This document shows, piece by piece, positions 21,604 to 39,008 of a stretch of DNA of 54,664 nucleotides. Made by a program: the position numbers and the translations under genes. Source of the stretch: Nitrospirota bacterium (GTDB lineage: Bacteria > Nitrospirota > Thermodesulfovibrionia > Thermodesulfovibrionales > JdFR-86); assembly GCA_037386965.1 (NCBI GenBank), contig JARRLN010000011.1:1-54664 (forward strand), read 5' to 3'. A model generated the notes under the pieces. The model made no database searches. It had not been told where the DNA came from and saw only the letters and a list, made by a program, of their open reading frames with translations. How positions within the stretch are numbered: the first letter of the stretch is position 1; each line of letters begins with the position of its first letter.

Positions 21604-22305
21604 TTGGGGGACATTTTCTCCGCCTTCGGCAGTGCCTTGAGGCTCATCGCACACCCCAGCGCGGAGCTCGTCGACATAGTGCTCCGGACCTTTGCCATCT
21701 CGGGGTCGGCCCTTCTTCTGGCCGCCCTGGCGGGCATTCCCCTGGGGGCCGCGGTGGGGTTGAGGAGGTTTCCCCTCCGGGGGCTGATCGTCTCGGTCCT
21801 GAACGCCTTCATGGGCCTTCCCCCCGTGGTGGTGGGCCTTTTCATCTACATCCTGCTTTCCCGGAGCGGGCCCCTGGGCTTCATGGGCCTTCTTTACTCC
21901 CCGGGGGCGATGGTGATAGCCCAGTTCGTCCTGGCTCTGCCCATCGTGGCTGCTTTGACCCATTCGGCCATGGTGGGGGTGAAGCCCCAGGTGGCCCAAA
22001 CGGCCCGGACCCTCGGGGCCACGTCCCGCCAGGTGACCAGGGCCGTCGTCCGCGAGGCCCGCTACGGCATCATGTCGGCCTCCGTCGCCGGCCTGGGGCG
22101 CGTGCTGGCGGAGGTGGGCTCCATCCTCATCGTGGGAGGCAACATCGCCGGGCTGACCCGCGTGATGACCACCACCATAGCGCTGGAGACCGACAAGGGG
22201 GAGTTCACCCTGGCCCTGGCCCTGGGCATCATCCTCCTCAGCATGTCCCTCGGCATCAACATGGCCCTGCACCTCCTTCAGAGGAGAACCCAGTATGAAC
22301 GTTAG
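21604..22305 (+). CDS. tupB: Tungstate/molybdate ABC transporter permease
   Basis: MGLPPVVVGL..LSRSGPLG, AMVIAQ, EVGSILIVGGNIAGLTRVMTTTIALET. Confidence 0.9.
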   Translation: MGDIFSAFGSALRLIAHPSAELVDIVLRTFAISGSALLLAALAGIPLGAAVGLRRFPLRGLIVSVLNAFMGLPPVVVGLFIYILLSRSGPLGFMGLLYSPGAMVIAQFVLALPIVAALTHSAMVGVKPQVAQTARTLGATSRQVTRAVVREARYGIMSASVAGLGRVLAEVGSILIVGGNIAGLTRVMTTTIALETDKGEFTLALALGIILLSMSLGINMALHLLQRRTQYER

Positions 22306-22963
22306 GCTCGGCGTATCCAACATAGAGAAGAGCTACGGGAAGAAGAAGGTCCTGGCCGGGGCGACCTACGGGTTTGCCTCGGGGGTGACGGCCGTGATGG
22401 GCCCCAACGGCTGCGGGAAGTCCACCCTTCTGCGCATATGCGCGCTCCTTGAGCCTCCCACGGCGGGGGAAGTGCGATACTCCTATACGGGAAAGGGCAA
22501 CGTCCCCCACGACGTGGCCTTACGGCGCAAGATTACCTACGTGCTGCCCGAGGCGGCCCTCTTCAACACCACCGTGTGGAAGAACGCCGCCTATGGCCTC
22601 ATGGTGCGCGGGGTGGGCCGCAGGGAGCGCAAAAAGCGCACCGCGGAGATGCTCCAGGCCGTGGGCCTTTACGACAAGAGGAAGGAAAACGCCCTGTCCC
22701 TCTCAAGTGGGGAGGCCCAGCGCCTCGCCCTGGTGCGGGCCATGGTGCTGGAGCCCGAGGTGCTCTTCCTCGATGAGCCCACCGCGAGCCTCGACGAGGA
22801 AAACGCGGCCGTCGTGGAAAAGATTCTCCTGGGGATGAAGAGACAGACCGACGCGCCCACCATCATCCTGGCCACCCACGACCGCGCGATGGCCGAGCGC
22901 CTGGCCGACGTCATCATCACCATCCGCCACGGCAAGATCCCCCACGGCGTGGTGTTGCGTTGA
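22295..22963 (+). CDS. tupC: Tungstate ABC transporter ATP-binding protein
   Basis: GPNGCGKS Walker A, LSSGEAQR, LFLDEPTASLD; overlaps the tupB stop. Confidence 0.8.
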   Translation: MNVRLGVSNIEKSYGKKKVLAGATYGFASGVTAVMGPNGCGKSTLLRICALLEPPTAGEVRYSYTGKGNVPHDVALRRKITYVLPEAALFNTTVWKNAAYGLMVRGVGRRERKKRTAEMLQAVGLYDKRKENALSLSSGEAQRLALVRAMVLEPEVLFLDEPTASLDEENAAVVEKILLGMKRQTDAPTIILATHDRAMAERLADVIITIRHGKIPHGVVLR

Positions 22964-23034
22964 AAGCCGGTAAATGGGCGCTCTCTCCACTCTCCTCCTC
23001 AAAAACCCATTAGATAAATGGTTCGTCACCATAG

Positions 23035-23561
23035 TCATTCGAACCACCTGTATGGAACGGGTTTGATATAGCACTTTTTCTCCCGCCCATCAACATCAAT
23101 TATCCATTGCAGTCTAGATATTTCTTGTAAAACTGACAATCTCACTTTCAGGAAGAATGCAAATCAAGAAGCGACCCACTTGCGATGATTCGGAAAACCG
23201 GCGCCCGTACAATTAGAATGATCATTAACAGAATCATGCCGTTCCTTGCCCACATTCTTTTCTTCAGAACGAAGAAGCCCACCAAGATGGCGACACTGAA
23301 TATAATGACATTTGAGATCAGCGTATATAGGATGACGTCACTACCAACATTCAATCTGACAGATGCTTCTTTAGCATATACCTGAAACGATTGTTCCATA
23401 TCCGTTAACAGGGAAGAGTCTCTAGTATGCGCTATTCGAGCTATCACATATGGCGGCCCGAGGGTAGCAATCAACATGCTTATAGCAAGCAACCACACGT
23501 AAATGATGGAGAAATATATTTATATCCTCGGTTTTTTTATTCCATCACAGGAGTGCGCCAT
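23035..23561 (-). pseudogene. Probable decayed membrane-protein gene
   Basis: ORF 23148-23498 is hydrophobic; in-frame ATG at 23561 is cut by TAA 23522-23520; a shifted frame continues AFFLKVRL..YRWFE to stop 23035. Confidence 0.35.
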
Positions 23562-23717
23562 AAGTAACGATTCTCGATTGTATTGTGAACAATTATATGA
23601 GGTTTCAAAGGTGTCGGTACAGGAAGTACATGTGACTACGCCCTCCACAAGCGAAGATGCAACTGCAAGGTCGAGAGGGATTATAAATTACTGATAGAAG
23701 AGCGCAGTTATTGGATA

Positions 23718-24719
23718 TCATTGCATCCTCTTTCCATAATATTCTATATCGCTTTGTATTTCCTCGATCCATTCCTTAGCACCTTCTTTTTCATCTTTGT
23801 TCTTAGTCTTTTTATAGTTTTCTTTAACCCATTCAAGCTGCTCTTTCAAAACTTCTATAAGGTACCTCCTTTGGTAGTTCTCCTGAGGCCCTTTAAGGGA
23901 TATCATTGATAGTATTAGAAGCCTCTCCGGATATCCCGGATTATTCTCATAGAGGGCTTTCATATTTGTGTAGGCCTCGTCAATATCATCAACTTTTGTG
24001 ATTGTACTCACAATATCTCTGATTGGGAATTCCTTCCCTGTAGACCGTTTCAAGGCGATATGGAAAGAATCGAATTTATCATCATTACAAAATTCAAAAT
24101 TGCTGGATGTGCCATCAGCACTTTCTCTAAGGAACCCCGCTATGTGTGGAGTCTTAACATCATACATCTTGCCTGTTGTTGCCGTTAATTTTACAAACAA
24201 ATAGGGGAAAGACCTTAGATTCTGAATTGGGTTCCACCAACTTAAGTCGCTGAGTCTACTATAATGCGTCTCAGTAAGGAATTTCTTGCAAGAACGATCA
24301 GACCCATAAATAATTCCTTCCCGGAATCTATCGTACAGTGATTCATTCTCACGATAAGTCACCCAAGGACTTTCACTGAAACTGATAATAGCTGAGAGAC
24401 CGTCATTTTCGTAAAATAATAAATCTATGGATGACAAACTTCGCTCATATATATGAGGACTTATCTTTATATTCCTTTCTTCTTTTAGAAAGGGCATCTT
24501 AACTGCGTAACTGAACAAAGTAATTTGCTCGCCGTCGATATTCGTTTCAGGAAGGATAACTTTCTCTGGAATCTGGTTTAAGTTCACGACAAAATCTTCG
24601 ATTACTAAACCATGATACAGAAAATATTCAAGTGCGGCGTTACCCCAGAACCAGGCGTTGACAAAGAGGAGTGCCAAGATAAGCAGAATCTTCCTTATTT
24701 TCTTTTTGGCAGGTCTCAT
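23718..24719 (-). CDS. Hypothetical protein with N-terminal membrane anchor
   Basis: 333-aa ORF in AT-rich DNA; basic then hydrophobic N-terminus; TATAAT upstream; family not recognised. Confidence 0.8.
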   Translation of the reverse strand: MRPAKKKIRKILLILALLFVNAWFWGNAALEYFLYHGLVIEDFVVNLNQIPEKVILPETNIDGEQITLFSYAVKMPFLKEERNIKISPHIYERSLSSIDLLFYENDGLSAIISFSESPWVTYRENESLYDRFREGIIYGSDRSCKKFLTETHYSRLSDLSWWNPIQNLRSFPYLFVKLTATTGKMYDVKTPHIAGFLRESADGTSSNFEFCNDDKFDSFHIALKRSTGKEFPIRDIVSTITKVDDIDEAYTNMKALYENNPGYPERLLILSMISLKGPQENYQRRYLIEVLKEQLEWVKENYKKTKNKDEKEGAKEWIEEIQSDIEYYGKRMQ

Positions 24720-25117
24720 TAGATGAAAGATGTTACATTATACTCTTCATGATTCTATGAATCATCAAGAATCACTCTTTGAGCGAATACATCTGGCTGC
24801 AATGATGACCATAAAACTGAAGACCATGATGAGAAGGACCTTTCATGTTTTATTAGCATAATATGTTCTATTACGCAACTGTAAATATGTAATTCGAGTC
24901 ACAGGAGAGCGGAAGAATCGATTGTAAAAGTCAAGAACCGTCAAATAAGAAGCAAGAGGATTCGGCCCAGAAAAGCGGCGTTTGGATTTTTGAGAGAGTT
25001 ATTCAGACCACTTCATTGTGTATTTCAATTTCTATTCTGTACAGTTATGCCGTAGCGGCGGTTGCCTCGCGCCGGGTGCTCCGCCGCAGTCCTCAAATCG
25101 CTCTTCCCTTCTGTGGA

Positions 25118-25213
25118 GCGCTGAAAAGAAAAGGCGGTTTGGCGCAGCCTCCGATGTTCCAAACCGGACGTCCGGCCGCTTAGAGCTTGACCTTGGCGGC
25201 CCGGGCCAGGGTC
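25118..25213. repeat. Direct repeat copy 1: displaced aroF 3' end plus downstream sequence
   Basis: 25164-25213 matches 28046-28099 (one substitution, one 4-nt indel) and reads LARAAKVKL* on the minus strand; 25118-25149 matches 27984-28016 at 27/33. Confidence 0.92.
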
Positions 25214-25240
25214 CCGAGACATCCGTATCCACACACCTTC

Positions 25241-27694
25241 TCACCGCGCTTTCACTTTCATTTGCACCTTGTGGGTAAGCATCTTTACCCCGTTCAGGAT
25301 GAAAAGCCATACAAGGGCATACGCCCATACGATGCCCGCGTTACGCCAGCCGACGGGGGTAACGAGAAAGCCGTACACCGCTATCAAGGTACCGGCTATC
25401 TGCGTGAGTTCCAGAGGTATGAGCAGGCCAAGGCTCGGCAGCGGCCTCTCCCACAAGGCGGCACGGGTGCGCGTGAGGAATATGGTCATGTGGCCGGCGA
25501 CAAGCAGCTTCAGGAACACCATCGTCTGGATTACCTCGGGGGGAAAATCCGTGTACGTCCGCAGGTAGTAAAAGAAAAGGAAAGAAGAGACTACGCCGGC
25601 CAGGCCCAGCATGCTTGCCATCGAAAGGACCCTGGGCATGTCCCAGCGCACCGGGCGGGGCGGCGTCCGCACGTTGTCCCATGCAATGGCGATTATCGGC
25701 AAATCGTTCAATATCGCAAGGAGTATGATCATTATCGCGCTGACCGGATAAAAATTGAATACCAGAACCGAAATGGCGATGAACAGCAGCAGGCGGATGG
25801 TCTCGGTAATGCGGTACGTGGCGTAGCTCATCATCCGCTCGAAGATGCGGCGGGCTTCCTCGACCGCCCTGATAATCACCCCCAATCCGGGCGCCGTCAG
25901 AACGAGCGCGGCAGCCGCACGCGCCGCGTCGGCGGCTTCCGGCACCGCGATGCCCACGTCGGCCTGCTTCAGGGCGGGGGCATCGTTTACCCCGTCGCCG
26001 GTCATCCCTATGATGGTATCCCCGGACTGGAAGGCCTTGATGATATTGAACTTGTGCTCCGGGGTTACTTCGGCAAAGCCGTCGCTCTCGGTCACCCGCC
26101 GGGCCATCTGCGATTCGTCCTCCTTGCCCTTGCCGAAGACGTCGGCGGCAACCTTTATGTCCCGGCCCAAATCAACCTGTTTGGCCACCTGTCTGGCTAT
26201 GGCCAGATGGTCCCCGGTTACCATCCGTATATCTATTCCATGCTCCTTTGCCGCTTTCACAACCTCCGCCGAGTCCTCGCGCGGAGGGTCCAGGAGGGGC
26301 AGGAGCCCCAGGTACTGCCACTCGCCGCCTTCGTCTTTCCTGGCTACGCCCAAAGCGCGGAAACCCTCGCGCCCGAGCTCGTCAACCCTGGCCTCGACGT
26401 CTCCAGCTCCTTTCCCCTCGGGGCCGACGAGTTCTGATATGGCCTGCGGAGCCCCCTTGGCAACGGTGAATTTCTTGCCCTCGTATTGGATGTCCGCGTC
26501 GGCCATTTTCCTTGTGGGGTCGAACGGGCGAAATTCGTCGACTTTGTACGCATCGAGTTCCTTCGTATCACCAAGTCCCTTCAGCACGGCCGCGTCGATG
26601 GGGTCTTCCCCGTCTTCCTCGCGCCGGGCCGTGAGGGCCGCCGCCAGTATGAGGTCGTGCTTGTCCTTTGCGGCCAGGAGAACGGGGTCCTGCAGCTCCA
26701 GCTTGTTCTTGGTAAGGGTGCCCGTCTTATCGGCACAGAGCACCTTCAAGCCCGCCATCTCTTCCATGGCGGGCAGTTTCGAGACGATAGCCTTCCACTG
26801 CGCCAGCCGCCCGGCGCCTATGGACATGGTGACGGAAAGCACCGCCGGCAGGGCAACCGGAATTCCCGCCAGAGTCAGGCCCAGCGCAAAGATGATCACC
26901 TTGATTGCCATGTCGCCTCTGTACAGTATGCTGACCAAAACGATGGTAACGACCAGCGCCCCGGCCGACCCCATAAGAAAGTAGCCTATCCGAAGCACGG
27001 CACGCTGGAAGTGTGACACCCCCTGGGCCCCCGCCACAAGCTCCACCGTGCGGGCGAAGCGGGTATTGCCTCCCGTGGCAACCACCACGGCCCGGGCCTC
27101 GCCCTGTTTGACCGTCGTGCCCGAGTACACGCCGTCGGATTCCTGCTTGTCCACGGGAAGGGACTCCCCGGTGAGGGTCGATTCGTCGGCGCTGAGATGC
27201 TCTTTTTCCAGCAGCTTCGCGTCGGCGGGGACGACATCTCCCATGCGCAGAACGACGATGTCTCCCGGCACGAGCCTCCTGGCCGGGATGGTTTTCCGCC
27301 CCCCGTCCCTGATAACCCGGGCATTCAAGGCCATCTGTTTCTTGAGTGCTTCGATGGCCTGGCTTGCCTTGCTTTCGTGCCAGTAACTGACCCCGCCATT
27401 GACCAGCAGCAACAGCAGAATAACCCCGCATTCCTCCCACTTCCGCACCGAACCGGCCAGAAGGAGGGCTATCTCGATCATCCAGGGTATCGGTCCCCAG
27501 AAGTGGGAGAAAAAATCCAGAATCGGGCTTTTCTTTTCTTCCTCGACGGCGTTCTCGCCGTATCTTTCGATTCTCTTTGCGGCCTCCGATTCGGCAAGGC
27601 CGCTTTCGCGGTCGGTCGACAGCTCCTCGATGACGTCCCGAACCGGTTTGCCCTCCAGCTCCTCGCGCTCGTATTCCTTCTTCTCCTCGGCCAT
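25241..27694 (-). CDS. P-type IIIA plasma-membrane H+-ATPase
   Basis: DESTLTGES, GIPVALPAVLSVTM (M4), CADKTGTLTKN, MVTGD, TGDGVNDAPALKQAD, ETIRL (M5 Arg), AILND (M6 Asp). Confidence 0.93.
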   Translation of the reverse strand: MAEEKKEYEREELEGKPVRDVIEELSTDRESGLAESEAAKRIERYGENAVEEEKKSPILDFFSHFWGPIPWMIEIALLLAGSVRKWEECGVILLLLLVNGGVSYWHESKASQAIEALKKQMALNARVIRDGGRKTIPARRLVPGDIVVLRMGDVVPADAKLLEKEHLSADESTLTGESLPVDKQESDGVYSGTTVKQGEARAVVVATGGNTRFARTVELVAGAQGVSHFQRAVLRIGYFLMGSAGALVVTIVLVSILYRGDMAIKVIIFALGLTLAGIPVALPAVLSVTMSIGAGRLAQWKAIVSKLPAMEEMAGLKVLCADKTGTLTKNKLELQDPVLLAAKDKHDLILAAALTARREEDGEDPIDAAVLKGLGDTKELDAYKVDEFRPFDPTRKMADADIQYEGKKFTVAKGAPQAISELVGPEGKGAGDVEARVDELGREGFRALGVARKDEGGEWQYLGLLPLLDPPREDSAEVVKAAKEHGIDIRMVTGDHLAIARQVAKQVDLGRDIKVAADVFGKGKEDESQMARRVTESDGFAEVTPEHKFNIIKAFQSGDTIIGMTGDGVNDAPALKQADVGIAVPEAADAARAAAALVLTAPGLGVIIRAVEEARRIFERMMSYATYRITETIRLLLFIAISVLVFNFYPVSAIMIILLAILNDLPIIAIAWDNVRTPPRPVRWDMPRVLSMASMLGLAGVVSSFLFFYYLRTYTDFPPEVIQTMVFLKLLVAGHMTIFLTRTRAALWERPLPSLGLLIPLELTQIAGTLIAVYGFLVTPVGWRNAGIVWAYALVWLFILNGVKMLTHKVQMKVKAR

Positions 27695-27983
27695 CCGCAT
27701 TCCCTTCCGGTCAATCACCAAAGCCTTCGGGACCGCAACTAAAAATTGTAGAGAAGTTCGACGGTCACTTCATGGCGCCCGTGCCCGGTACGTACAGCCC
27801 CGGCTAACACCCGTGGCCCATTGCAGGCCGCCATCCGGGGGGCCCGGAGCCGGGATTTGTTCGGAGCGGCCTCCTCTTTCGTTCTCCCTTTTCCTGTCCC
27901 GGGAATCCCGCTTGCTCTCCAAGATTAGATTGATTATATCAGCATTTCATGCAGGGGGCACCGGGGAGGCGGGGTGCATGCCC

Positions 27984-28099
27984 GCACTGGAGAGAAACGG
28001 CGGTTTCGGCGCGGCCTTGACCCGCAGGGGGAACGGCGAGCCCGTCCGGACGTCCGGCCCGGAGCTTAGAGCTTGACCTTGGCGGCCCGGGACAGGGTC
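27984..28099. repeat. Direct repeat copy 2: functional aroF 3' end plus downstream sequence
   Basis: Partner of 25118-25213; reads LSRAAKVKL* on the minus strand. Confidence 0.92.
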
Positions 28100-29082
28100 T
28101 TGAGTTTTTCCATCACCTGCCCGAACTCCTCGATGTCCAGCGACTGCGGCCCGTCGCAGAGGGCCCGGGCGGGGTCGGGATGGACCTCCAGCATGACGCC
28201 GTCGGCCCCGGCGGCCAGGGCGGCGAAGCACAGGGGCGGGATGTACTGCCTGACGCCCGTGGCGTGGGAGGGGTCGATGATGATGGGCAGGTGGGAGCGC
28301 TCCTGGATGACGGGGACAGCGGAGATGTCCAGGGTGTTGCGCGTGGCGTTCTCGAAGGTGCGGATGCCCCGCTCGCAAAGCACCAGGGCCGTGCAGCCCT
28401 CCGAGAGCACGTACTCGGCAGACATGAGGAACTCCTGGATGGTGGTGGACATGCCCCGCTTGAGGAGGATGGGCTTGCCCAGCCTCCCCACGGTGCGCAG
28501 CAGGGAGAAGTTCTGCACGTTTCTGGCCCCTATCTGGAGCATGTCGGCGTACTCGGCGGCCAGCTCGGCGCTCCGGGTGTTGATGACCTCCGTGACGAAG
28601 GGCAGCCCCGTCTCCGTGCGCGCCTTGGCCAGGAGCTTGAGGCCCTCCTCCTCCATCCCCTGGAAAGAATAGGGCGAGGTGCGGGGCTTGAAGGCCCCGC
28701 CCCGGAGCATACGGGCCCCGGCCTTCTTGACGCCCTCGGCGGCCTTTATTATCTGCTTTTCGCTTTCCACCGAGCAGGGCCCGGCGATGATGCCGAAGTG
28801 GCCCGCGCCGAAGACCGCCCTGCCCACGGTGACCACGGTGCGGTCGCGCTTGAACTCCCGGCTGGCCAGCTTGTAGGGCTGAAGGATGGGGACCATCTTC
28901 TCCACGCAGGGCAGGGCCTCGAGGTTCTGAAGCTGCACCTTGCCCCGCTCGTCGCCGATGGCGCCGATGACCGTGCGCTCCACGCCCACGCTGACGTGAG
29001 GGGTGAGCCCCACGGCCTCTATCTTTTTCACGATGCCTTCAATCTGTTTTTTGCTGCACCCTTTCCTCAAAACGATGATCAT
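28066..29082 (-). CDS. aroF: DAHP synthase (type I-beta, N-terminal regulatory domain)
   Basis: IAGPCSVES, RGGAFKPRTSPYSFQG, QIGARNVQN, LKRG, CERGIRT, DPSHATG, EVHPDP..DGPQSL; SD GAGGAGG. Confidence 0.96.
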   Translation of the reverse strand: MIIVLRKGCSKKQIEGIVKKIEAVGLTPHVSVGVERTVIGAIGDERGKVQLQNLEALPCVEKMVPILQPYKLASREFKRDRTVVTVGRAVFGAGHFGIIAGPCSVESEKQIIKAAEGVKKAGARMLRGGAFKPRTSPYSFQGMEEEGLKLLAKARTETGLPFVTEVINTRSAELAAEYADMLQIGARNVQNFSLLRTVGRLGKPILLKRGMSTTIQEFLMSAEYVLSEGCTALVLCERGIRTFENATRNTLDISAVPVIQERSHLPIIIDPSHATGVRQYIPPLCFAALAAGADGVMLEVHPDPARALCDGPQSLDIEEFGQVMEKLKTLSRAAKVKL

Positions 29083-29255
29083 CTGAGAGCCTCCTCTTGG
29101 ACGCACCCTCCGCCCCGGCGCACGGCCGGCGGTCGTCGCGGGCCGCCGGATGCCCCGCCTCAGACGCAAAGGCGAGGGGGAGAAGCACGGAATGACTGAT
29201 AAATTAATACAGGGGAGCCCCGCAAGTCAACGAAAACGGGCGGCCCAGGCCGCTC

Positions 29256-30116
29256 TCAGTAGTCTATCAGGACGTAGTCCGCGTTCTCGTGGGTGAGCTC
29301 GCCGGGGTCCATGCCGGGCATGAGGGGCTGGATGACGACGTAGGGATAGCCCCCCTCCATGCGGTCCATCTGCGTGGGGATGCCCTGCTTGAGGGCGTGG
29401 GTATAGCCGGCCAGCACCAGCACGGAGCTTCGGGGGTTGTTCTTGAGGTACTGGATGACGTGCCACGCCATGGCCTTGTCCCAGAGGAGCTGAGCCTCGC
29501 AGAAGTGGACGAACGTCTTGTCCCCGGGCCCGTGCATGCGGTACATCATGCGGATGTAATCCATGTACTCCCTGTCCACGTTACAGGTGAGCACCGGGGG
29601 GATGCCCTTCAGGTCCTCCTCGGTGAGGGAATCGAAGCCGTCGCGGGCGACCTTCTCGGTAATCTCCTTCGGAACGTTGAGCCCTATCAGGTGGACCTTC
29701 TCCCGGCGCGCATAGAGAAATATCTGCCGGTAGAAGCGCCACGGATAGCCCCAGTTGGCCAGGTAGATGGCGCTGAAACGCTCCTCGGAAAGCTCCCCCG
29801 CCACCCATTCGTTCAGGGCTTTCTGGTCCCTGGACCTGAACATCTCGAGGCCCGCGGCCAGGGCGTCTTTCCGGGACCCGTGCAGCGCCTTCAGGACCTC
29901 GAGCTCCGCCCTGTGGTGGGGCGCGTACGTGTGAGCCTCGCCCATGAAGACGAGGCGCACGTCCCGGATTTCTTTGTACATCTGCTCGCGGCTGATGGTC
30001 TCGCCATCGCTGGTCCTCAGGACGCGCTCGTGGGCCAGCCCCCTGCCCGGCGAAAGCACAAAGGCCAGAAGGACCAGAACGGGGAGGACGGATTTCCTGA
30101 AAAAGCCTCCTGCCAT
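29256..30116 (-). CDS. ChaN/Tiki-superfamily exported protein
   Basis: Signal peptide; VFMGEAHT, GLEMF, AQLLWDKAMA, VLAGYTH. Confidence 0.8.
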   Translation of the reverse strand: MAGGFFRKSVLPVLVLLAFVLSPGRGLAHERVLRTSDGETISREQMYKEIRDVRLVFMGEAHTYAPHHRAELEVLKALHGSRKDALAAGLEMFRSRDQKALNEWVAGELSEERFSAIYLANWGYPWRFYRQIFLYARREKVHLIGLNVPKEITEKVARDGFDSLTEEDLKGIPPVLTCNVDREYMDYIRMMYRMHGPGDKTFVHFCEAQLLWDKAMAWHVIQYLKNNPRSSVLVLAGYTHALKQGIPTQMDRMEGGYPYVVIQPLMPGMDPGELTHENADYVLIDY

Positions 30117-37859: not shown

Positions 37860-39008
37860 GTGTTCCAGGAACGGCTCATCAGGCTCAAGGCGGCGGGGCT
37901 TCTGCGGGAAAGGAACGACCGCGAAGGCCCCCAGGCGCGCCACCTGCGGATGGAAGGCAGGGAGCTTCTGAACTTCGCCTCCAACGACTACCTGGGCCTG
38001 GCCGCGGACCCCCGCCTGAAGGAGGCGGCGCGCCGTGCCCTCCAAAGGGAGGGCACCGGGGGCGGGGCGGCCCGGCTTCTGGGCGGGGGCAGCACCCTTC
38101 AAAGAGAGCTGGAGACGGCCGCCGCCGCCCTGAAGGGCGCCCCGGACGCCCTCCTTCTGGGCTCGGGCTTCCAGGCAAACACGGGCATCCTGCCGGCCCT
38201 GGCCGGCCGGGGAGACGTCATTCTCTCCGACGAGCTCAACCACGCCAGCATCGTCGACGGCACCCGCCTGGCCCGGGCCATGACCTACCGCTACCGACAC
38301 CGGAGCATGGAGCACCTGGAAAAGCTCCTGGGAAAGGTCGCCGTCTCGGGAAAGCGGATAGTGGCCACCGACACGGTCTTCAGCATGGACGGCACGGTCG
38401 CCCCCCTCCGGGACATCCTGTCGCTTTGCGAGCGCTACGACGCCCTCCTTTACCTCGACGACGCCCACGGCACCGGGGTGCTGGGCGGCGGCAGGGGGGC
38501 GCTCAGCCACGCGGGCCTTGCCCCCGGGGGACGCGTCATTCAGATGGGGACCTTCTCCAAGGCCCTGGGCTCCTACGGCGCCTTCGCTGCGGCGGAGGGG
38601 GCCGCCATAGAGTGGCTCGTGCAGGCGGCGCGAAGCTTCGTCTACTCCACGGCCCTTCCCCCCGCGGTGGTCGCGGCCTCGCTGGAGGCCGTGCGCATCG
38701 TCTCCCGCGAGCCCGTGCCGGAGGTCGAGAGGCTCTGGAGAAACAGGGAGCTCCTGCACCGGGGGCTCGGCGAGCTGGGCCTCGACACAGGCCGCTCCGA
38801 AACGCCCATTCTCCCGGTTTTCCCCGGAGACGTGGAGCGCACGCTCCGCGTGGCCCGGGGCCTTCGCGAGCGGGGCATCTACGCACCGGCCATCCGCCCG
38901 CCCACCGTACCCACGCCCCGGATACGCCTGAGCGTGACCGCCGCCCACGGCGAAGAGGACGTGGACAGGCTCCTCCGGGCGCTCAAGGACGTGCTGGCCT
39001 CCCTATGA
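37860..39008 (+). CDS. bioF: 8-amino-7-oxononanoate synthase (alpha-oxoamine synthase family)
   Basis: NFASNDYLGLA, SDELNHASIVDG, VFSMDG, DDAHGTG, GTFSKALG, PAIRPPTVP. Confidence 0.8.
   Translation: MFQERLIRLKAAGLLRERNDREGPQARHLRMEGRELLNFASNDYLGLAADPRLKEAARRALQREGTGGGAARLLGGGSTLQRELETAAAALKGAPDALLLGSGFQANTGILPALAGRGDVILSDELNHASIVDGTRLARAMTYRYRHRSMEHLEKLLGKVAVSGKRIVATDTVFSMDGTVAPLRDILSLCERYDALLYLDDAHGTGVLGGGRGALSHAGLAPGGRVIQMGTFSKALGSYGAFAAAEGAAIEWLVQAARSFVYSTALPPAVVAASLEAVRIVSREPVPEVERLWRNRELLHRGLGELGLDTGRSETPILPVFPGDVERTLRVARGLRERGIYAPAIRPPTVPTPRIRLSVTAAHGEEDVDRLLRALKDVLASL

Follow-up and report, generated by a model that had tools for sequence, protein, structure and literature searches.

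How a single proton-pump gene came to stand between the end of aroF and a second, displaced copy of that end is the question raised by a locus on contig JARRLN010000011.1 of a Nitrospirota bacterium (GCA_037386965.1), a metagenome-assembled genome (MAG) of 137 contigs. The window, meaning the whole stretch of DNA that was analysed, comprised 54,664 nucleotides. Within it, a gene for a P3A plasma-membrane-type proton-efflux P-type ATPase and its upstream region, together referred to as the cassette, lie between two copies of the aroF 3' end, designated R1 (copy B, joined to aroF) and R2 (copy A, displaced). An earlier note on this DNA, made from the letters without database searches, had described the cassette as an insertion at aroF and had suggested a cargo mobilised in trans. 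The results below point to the insertion of a foreign gene at the aroF 3' end that has since become fixed in the sampled population. The favoured explanation, to which we give a probability of about 0.45, is that the cassette is the relic of one site-specific (Campbell-type) integration at the aroF 3' end and terminator, nearest in kind to the cis-mobilizable elements (CIMEs), with its recombinase gone.

Two copies of the aroF 3' end

The aroF gene (28066 to 29082, minus strand) was intact and encodes a DAHP synthase with an N-terminal ferredoxin-like domain (Pfam PF00793 and PF18152; NCBIfam NF006421, 495 bits). At 338 aa the protein has the same length as its orthologues in sister genera. 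The whole repeat unit R1 (27984 to 28105, minus strand) recurred as R2 (25118 to 25219, minus strand). In R1, the last 11-12 aroF codons and the stop occupy 28066-28099, a 12-nt palindrome, CCGGACGTCCGG, lies at 28046-28057, and a further conserved stretch, the second block, at 27984-28016. In R2, 11 codons and the stop occupy 25180-25213 and the palindrome lies at 25164-25175; a hairpin, CGGTTTGG/CCAAACCG, spans 25135-25167, and a T-run is present at 25123-25132. The palindrome follows the aroF end in both copies, and spacers of unequal length separate it from the second block.

Both BLAST and a repeat finder aligned 25164-25213 with 28046-28099 at 91% identity over 54 columns with one gap, which confirmed the earlier observation that the aroF 3' end recurs there. 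When the sequence was read directly, the coding part with the stop was identical at 33 of 34 positions (25180-25213 versus 28066-28099), and the single difference, C at 25206 versus A at 28092, results in Ala or Ser. The second recurring block, which had also been noticed, was borne out by a match of 28 of 34 positions with one gap (25118-25149 versus 27984-28016). Its score of 36 was reached by none of 3000 random genome windows, the best of which scored 28. BLAST found no further copy of the repeat in the 2.54-Mb genome, other matches being of 20 nt or less, and the possibility of a dispersed repeat that the earlier note had raised was thereby removed.

The non-coding part of the copies was ~70% identical with indels. 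Copy A carried the intact hairpin and T-run and was terminator-like; copy B had no intact hairpin. R1 was nearly identical across strains, with at most one base change over the 216 nt compared in all nine of the same-species contigs that covered it. Judged by their sequences, R1 and R2 appear to be homologous forms of the aroF end and terminator that have had different histories, and not a fresh identical duplicate, in line with the earlier suggestion that the divergence marks a foreign or old copy.

As had been reported, only the ATPase gene (25241 to 27694, minus strand) and its upstream region (27695 to 27983, minus strand; 289 nt, read directly from the sequence) were found in the 2.8 kb between the copies. 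The non-coding flanks of the ATPase within the cassette measure 289 nt and 27 nt only, the 34-nt aroF fragment of R2 starting 27 nt past the ATPase stop, and the non-coding DNA between aroF and the ATPase amounts to 371 nt. The GC contents given in the earlier note (48-58% for the cassette versus 77% for aroF) were not reproduced; the measured values were 60.8% for the ATPase and 65.9% for aroF. The GC content at third codon positions (GC3) was 0.77 for the ATPase, 0.92 for aroF and 0.83-0.92 for neighbouring genes. The strongly AT-rich DNA of the locus (37-41% GC) is a neighbouring island at ~22964-25055 and not the cassette.

Origin of the ATPase gene

The 817-aa ATPase matched TIGR01647 with 887 bits (cut-off 615.5) over profile positions 1-755 of 755, an assignment at the equivalog level, and contained the Pfam domains E1-E2_ATPase, Cation_ATPase_N and Hydrolase. 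Its best homologue among 40 genomes of the same family or order was 50% identical and was located at another locus. The nearest relatives, with 75-77% amino acid identity, were chromosomal genes of 'delta proteobacterium' and Calditrichia MAGs, and the next nearest came from Dehalococcoidales, Desulfobacteraceae and Bacteroidales. In a maximum-likelihood tree, the ATPase was placed in a 100/100 clade with the 'delta proteobacterium' and Calditrichia sequences, and the second P3A copy of the genome, on contig C29, fell outside that clade among family-level homologues. Because no homologue within the family and order exceeds 50% identity or shares this locus, the nearest relatives belong to other phyla, and GC3 is 0.77, the ATPase is of foreign origin and horizontally acquired, as the earlier note had supposed of the cargo.

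Three sister-genus genomes of the same family (L035, L036 and L037) were found to have aroF directly convergent on an ABC ATPase and permease. Their ABC genes were 56-71% identical to those of the window, and the spacers between aroF and the ABC genes, of ~90-900 nt (sizes estimated from match coordinates), held no P-type ATPase. Since aroF directly faces the ABC genes in the sister genera, ~5.1 kb has been gained in the lineage of the window. By this comparison the ATPase gene is an insertion at the aroF 3' end, as had been claimed. Vertical inheritance at this position in all relatives, the contrary case named in the earlier note, was not seen, the sister-genus aroF loci being without the ATPase.

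None of the 13 nearest ATPase homologues had aroF or an integrase beside it, and no flanking homology extended past the open reading frame (ORF). The nearest homologues adjoined housekeeping genes (PGK, GAPDH and trehalose phosphatase). Proton-efflux ATPases of the P3A family (TIGR01647) are found on mobile replicons as well, namely plasmids of Burkholderia, Acidiphilium and Rhodococcus, but the plasmid-borne homologues were 47-56% identical and hence no closer, whereas the nearest relatives here are chromosomal and come from MAGs of other phyla.

The native P3A paralogue (C29:36281-38522) was 69% identical to its orthologue in genome G007, yet it was broken: ~51 codons were missing and a frame shift occurred near 37950, of which an assembly error in the MAG is a possible cause. 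As the native copy on C29 is broken while the aroF-linked copy is intact, the acquired pump may have replaced the native P3A gene (xenologous replacement).

The 289-nt upstream region contained an extended -10-like sequence, TGATATAAT, at 27932 to 27924 on the minus strand, ~230 nt before the ATPase ATG (27694). This predicted promoter would imply a long leader of ~220 nt. The promoter scan did not list TGATATAAT because it has no -35 box. No ORF remnant was present in the upstream region, no Rfam family was found within 22800-29300, and RNA folds of both repeat-downstream regions gave scores no better than those of shuffles.

Occurrence of the cassette in independent assemblies

Evidence from the population was taken from assembled contigs (JGI, NCBI and Logan) of marsh metagenomes. 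Contigs of the same species, with 99.0-99.9% identity, were retrieved by exact-protein look-ups from at least 10 independent assemblies or samples; the ATPase and ABC ATPase proteins of the window itself were looked up exactly, and neither was on record. Several independent contigs spanned aroF, the ATPase and R2, and others spanned the ATPase, R2 and the island, both junctions being reproduced. All seven same-species contigs of sufficient reach had aroF followed by the cassette. Eleven contigs had an identical or nearly identical aroF; none of them showed an empty site or joined aroF to any sequence other than copy B. Three of these 11 stopped exactly at the repeat, as expected of a 31-mer graph when a 30-mer is common to both copies. 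The depth of the cassette contig equalled that of aroF and the ABC genes in four Logan runs from the marsh, and the depth of the AT-rich island contig was ~0.3-0.5 of that of its flanks. The cassette is now a fixed chromosomal part in the sampled population.

The fragmentation of the MAG into 137 contigs and the Logan contigs that end exactly at the repeat could suggest an assembly artefact or a dispersed repeat. This explanation carries almost no weight, since independent JGI, NCBI and Logan contigs span the junctions and the genome contains only two copies of the repeat. Misassembly, a possibility raised in the earlier note, was therefore rejected on the strength of at least 10 independent assemblies, in which both junctions recur.

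Strain variation beyond R2

Polymorphism at the locus lies in the DNA past R2 and not in the cassette, a point that the earlier note had missed. Copy B and the left part of R2 were common to all strains, and four forms were found beyond R2. V1, represented by the window and five further contigs, has an A-type segment with the intact hairpin CGGTTTGG/CCAAACCG and T-run, followed by the AT-rich island. V2 (L049) lacked 24995-25177 (183 nt), and V3 (L050) had the A-type segment with single-nucleotide polymorphisms and different DNA after 25056. The remainder of the A-type downstream segment (25056 to 25117, minus strand) is accordingly present in V3 and absent from V2, where it falls within the 183-nt gap. 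In V4 (five samples), R2 matched copy B over 66 nt with one mismatch and was followed by ~140 nt of unique sequence and a gene for a 205-aa zinc-ribbon protein, located 21 nt downstream of the ABC ATPase gene, which is of full length here (248 aa).

A comparison of V1 with V4 (L158/L163) showed ~9% divergence over the last ~290 nt of the ATPase (25241-25530), versus ~0.3% in the remainder of the ATPase and 0.6-0.9% in aroF together with its upstream flank. The next 55 nt, which include R2 and its left flank, were identical, and thereafter the sequence types differed. The chance of 55 identical nt at 9% divergence is ~0.006. Two allele types, 3% apart, were seen in the 3' part of the ABC gene. 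The mosaic of V1 and V4 points to imports by homologous recombination, with a diverged lineage as donor in which the ATPase-R2 junction was already present. Because this donor lineage (~9% diverged) had the junction, the insertion is older than the split between the two lineages. Since the alignment of V1 with V4 continues across the palindrome, what looks like a 'junction' after TAAGC is the divergence of orthologues and not a precise recombination point.

In minus-strand order, the locus begins with a ChaN-like gene (minus strand) upstream of aroF, and after the cassette the R2 fragment is followed by ~120 nt of non-coding DNA and then by the AT-rich island of 2.1 kb. This island (22964 to 25055), which lies outside the ATPase cassette and is polymorphic in the population, has two genes, both on the minus strand (23718-24719 and 23148-23498), whose products of 333 aa and 116 aa have no assigned function. 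The island proteins (333 aa, 116/87 aa and the 205-aa zinc-ribbon protein) had no NCBIfam or PHROG match and a single marginal PADLOC match (E = 0.001). Beyond the island lies the ABC-transporter ATPase gene (22295 to 22963, plus strand), the ancestral convergent neighbour of aroF according to the synteny in L035, L036 and L037; the convergent ABC ATPase and permease together span 22963 to 21604 on the plus strand. Compared with other V1 strains and with L137/L155, in which the ABC ATPase has 248 aa, the window strain has a 198-nt deletion (22955-22963), by which the ABC ATPase gene has lost its last 26 codons along with downstream DNA, and a further 118-nt deletion (23154-23160) inside the small island gene.

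Two other contigs are recorded here. In L156 (10850-11263; GCA_037386885.1, JARRLO010000074.1), another sequence was found after the ABC gene, with 45% GC and a partial gene of no assigned function. It diverges ~95 nt past the ABC stop and is a further variant of the hotspot. In the mangrove run X16, a 497-nt contig matching 28047-28377 carried the aroF 3' end with 3 mismatches in 331 nt (99%). After aroF, this contig reads TAAGGG-CCGGACGTC-CGGTTTCG-CAAGGGC-CGAAACCG, in which CGGTTTCG/CGAAACCG form a compact hairpin whose stem, compared with V1 copy A, has compensatory changes; the continuation of copy B is absent. From its sequence, the X16 contig is the best candidate for an unoccupied aroF site.

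Mobility genes and element class

No recombinase was found in the cassette by profile or tblastn searches, in agreement with the earlier note. There was no match to a tyrosine or serine recombinase (PF00589 or PF00239) on contig C11. The genome as a whole contained three intact tyrosine recombinases, on C5, C14 and C27, and no serine recombinases. When the five tyrosine-recombinase ORFs of the genome were searched by tblastn against 22900-28200 and the variant tails, no integrase remnant was detected and only noise was returned (E > 0.05). The ends of the cassette had no terminal inverted repeats, only the palindrome matching itself, and the far ends of the neighbouring islands carried no third copy of the repeat.

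A transposon or insertion sequence was rejected, given the lack of terminal inverted repeats and a sole cassette gene that is a P-type ATPase by Pfam. An integron gene cassette was likewise rejected: the contig has no tyrosine recombinase, the cassette has its own 289-nt upstream region, and no Rfam or structured element was found.

A metagenome scan with aroF returned relatives of at most 75% identity, none of which had a duplicated aroF end. The earlier note had urged a search of relatives for other cargo at aroF, and no second aroF-targeted cargo was found. In the literature, no use of aroF as an attB site was found among the matches listed. Isolated C-terminal fragments of aroF, of 58-62 codons and 40-45% identity, were observed at G037:C137:7981-8154 and G008:C275:9892-10077; these might mark other insertions at the 3' ends of aroF-family genes.

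Of the features of integrase-borne elements, the cassette has foreign cargo, a site that is unoccupied in relatives, and a duplicated target end beside an intact aroF (54 columns at 91% in the window, 66 nt with one mismatch in V4); a recombinase within the element is lacking. Of the features of CIMEs, the retention of attL and attR with integration and transfer genes absent was found structurally, the att sites being putative. Descent from an integrative and conjugative element (ICE) or integrative and mobilizable element (IME), or accretion at the same site, was not found in the genome, the viral contigs or 72 aroF loci.

How the duplicated aroF end may have arisen

According to the favoured explanation, an ancestor of the salt-marsh lineage gained one foreign gene, the P3A ATPase with its own promoter-like region, at the aroF end. 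The gene would have entered on a small circular element with an attachment region homologous to the aroF end, by Campbell-type site-specific integration. The insertion left an attL/attR-like pair, in which R1 keeps aroF at full length and R2 is a dead 34-nt fragment with terminator-like sequence. The recombinase of the element would have been lost later, or would never have been carried on it. Later homologous recombination, anchored in the ATPase 3' end/R2 and in the ABC gene, would have exchanged the DNA beyond R2, including the AT-rich island. Integration is favoured because the locus has an attL-cargo-attR layout at the 3' end of a gene, because V4 has a clean 66-nt duplication, and because the distal arm of V1 is like a native terminator. 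The hairpin and T-run in copy A of V1 are as expected of the native downstream arm.

Several results weigh against this explanation. Neither a recombinase nor a remnant was detected, and the 289-nt upstream region offers no room for one. An attP element or a second copy of the core was absent from the genome and the viral contigs searched, and a duplicated aroF 3' end was found in 0 of 72 other aroF loci. No integrase was found near the related ATPases, which sit among housekeeping genes, and no related ICE/IME or accretion partner was found. A cargo of a single gene is unusually small for an integrase-borne element. The homology between the copies reaches ~85 nt past the stop codon with indels, which fits capture from a homologous locus equally well.

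Such a capture is a close rival, plausible but on balance doubtful. It proposes that the aroF-end/terminator homologue of a relative, joined to the ATPase, was acquired without a site-specific recombinase, either by a RecA-dependent single crossover or by homology-facilitated illegitimate recombination anchored in aroF. Copy B and its downstream arm dB would then stem from the donor, and copy A and its downstream arm dA from the recipient. The similarity that extends significantly through the terminator (28/34, with 0 of 3000 random windows as high) fits this proposal, as does the contrast of 33/34 in the coding part with ~70% and indels in the non-coding part, which is expected of orthologues from two lineages. 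Homologous recombination has moreover been active at the locus, where mosaic blocks are 3-9% diverged, and the failure to find a recombinase or remnant is in its favour. However, aroF stood beside this ATPase clade in none of 13 ATPase loci and 88 aroF loci, a single crossover requires a circular donor molecule, and joining by illegitimate recombination requires the distal end to have landed by chance 34 nt inside aroF. Duplication in situ is improbable. Here a staggered break in the aroF end would have been the point at which an ATPase fragment became attached, through illegitimate recombination or template switching; repair synthesis would have copied ~70-120 nt of the target, and later gene conversion and imports would have yielded the A and B types. 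The V4 copies, which match over 66 nt with one mismatch, and the lack of a recombinase and of terminal inverted repeats are compatible with this. Copy A, however, differs from copy B by several indels and an intact hairpin, and duplication in situ is disfavoured because, with strains 99% identical, two initially identical copies could hardly have come to differ so much. We know of no bacterial mechanism that regularly makes target duplications of this length.

It is very unlikely that the cassette is still mobile, with R1 and R2 as functional att sites and a recombinase elsewhere moving the cassette, perhaps together with the islands next to it. In favour of this, V1 and V4 show no difference over the 55 nt of R2 and its left flank although the flanking DNA is at least 9% diverged, four structural variants start at or just past R2, and one tyrosine recombinase, on C14, has no assigned role. 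Against this, gene conversion by R1 explains the conservation of R2 equally well, the alignment of V1 with V4 through the palindrome leaves no precise recombination point, and the variant islands have no third copy of the repeat at their far ends. The cassette is also fixed, with no empty site in 11 aroF contigs and a depth equal to that of its flanks. Mobilisation in trans, as proposed in the earlier note, was not supported: aroF was followed by the cassette in 7/7 contigs, the core is absent from viral contigs, and neither duplicated aroF ends (0/72 loci) nor ATPase loci with aroF or an integrase (0/13) were seen. A related and slightly more far-fetched idea is that both the aroF end and its displaced copy still recombine, acted on by a recombinase whose gene lies elsewhere in the genome and which shuffles modules lacking a recombinase, which would make the locus an integron-like array without a resident integrase. 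The modules at this one protein-coding attachment site would be the proton-pump cassette, the AT-rich island and the zinc-ribbon-gene island.

Relation to known elements and significance

CIMEs have lost their integration and transfer genes and keep attL and attR, an example being found at the fda 3' end in Streptococcus thermophilus/salivarius (PMC5704250). The aroF locus resembles them in that its cargo is flanked by direct repeats containing the 3'-terminal part of a protein-coding housekeeping gene, the target gene is intact, no integrase or transfer gene is present, and further variable DNA lies in tandem past the distal repeat. It differs from them in having no known related ICE/IME, third-att accretion partner or decay remnants, and in a cargo of one gene, a homology between the copies that runs well into the terminator, and an att function that is putative. 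Islands inserted by tyrosine recombinases at the 3' ends of tRNA or protein genes share with it the duplicated target end and a foreign cargo that is absent from relatives, but they carry an integrase or its remains beside one att site, and none is detectable here.

Flexible genomic islands and replacement hotspots are comparable with respect to the DNA beside the cassette. A single population has at least four alternative contents in the stretch from R2 to the ABC gene, and the divergence of the flanks is raised (3-9%), as is typical of imported segments. This model covers the variable DNA but not the origin of the aroF-end duplication.

The locus is of an ordinary kind, an old, fixed islet without a recombinase at the 3' end of a gene and beside a flexible hotspot; what is new is the target gene. 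Current models of genomic islands are not challenged by it. If the integration explanation is true, aroF (DAHP synthase) would be one more protein-coding gene with an attachment site at its 3' end, and the cassette would be a natural example of a one-gene cargo that has outlived its carrier element. In addition, strains from one habitat differ at this site, which is a hotspot with at least four alternative contents. Of greater interest than the mechanism is the biology: a foreign proton pump of the plasma-membrane type is present in an uncultured salt-marsh lineage of sulfate reducers and the native copy is broken, which suggests the replacement of a housekeeping pump by a xenologue.

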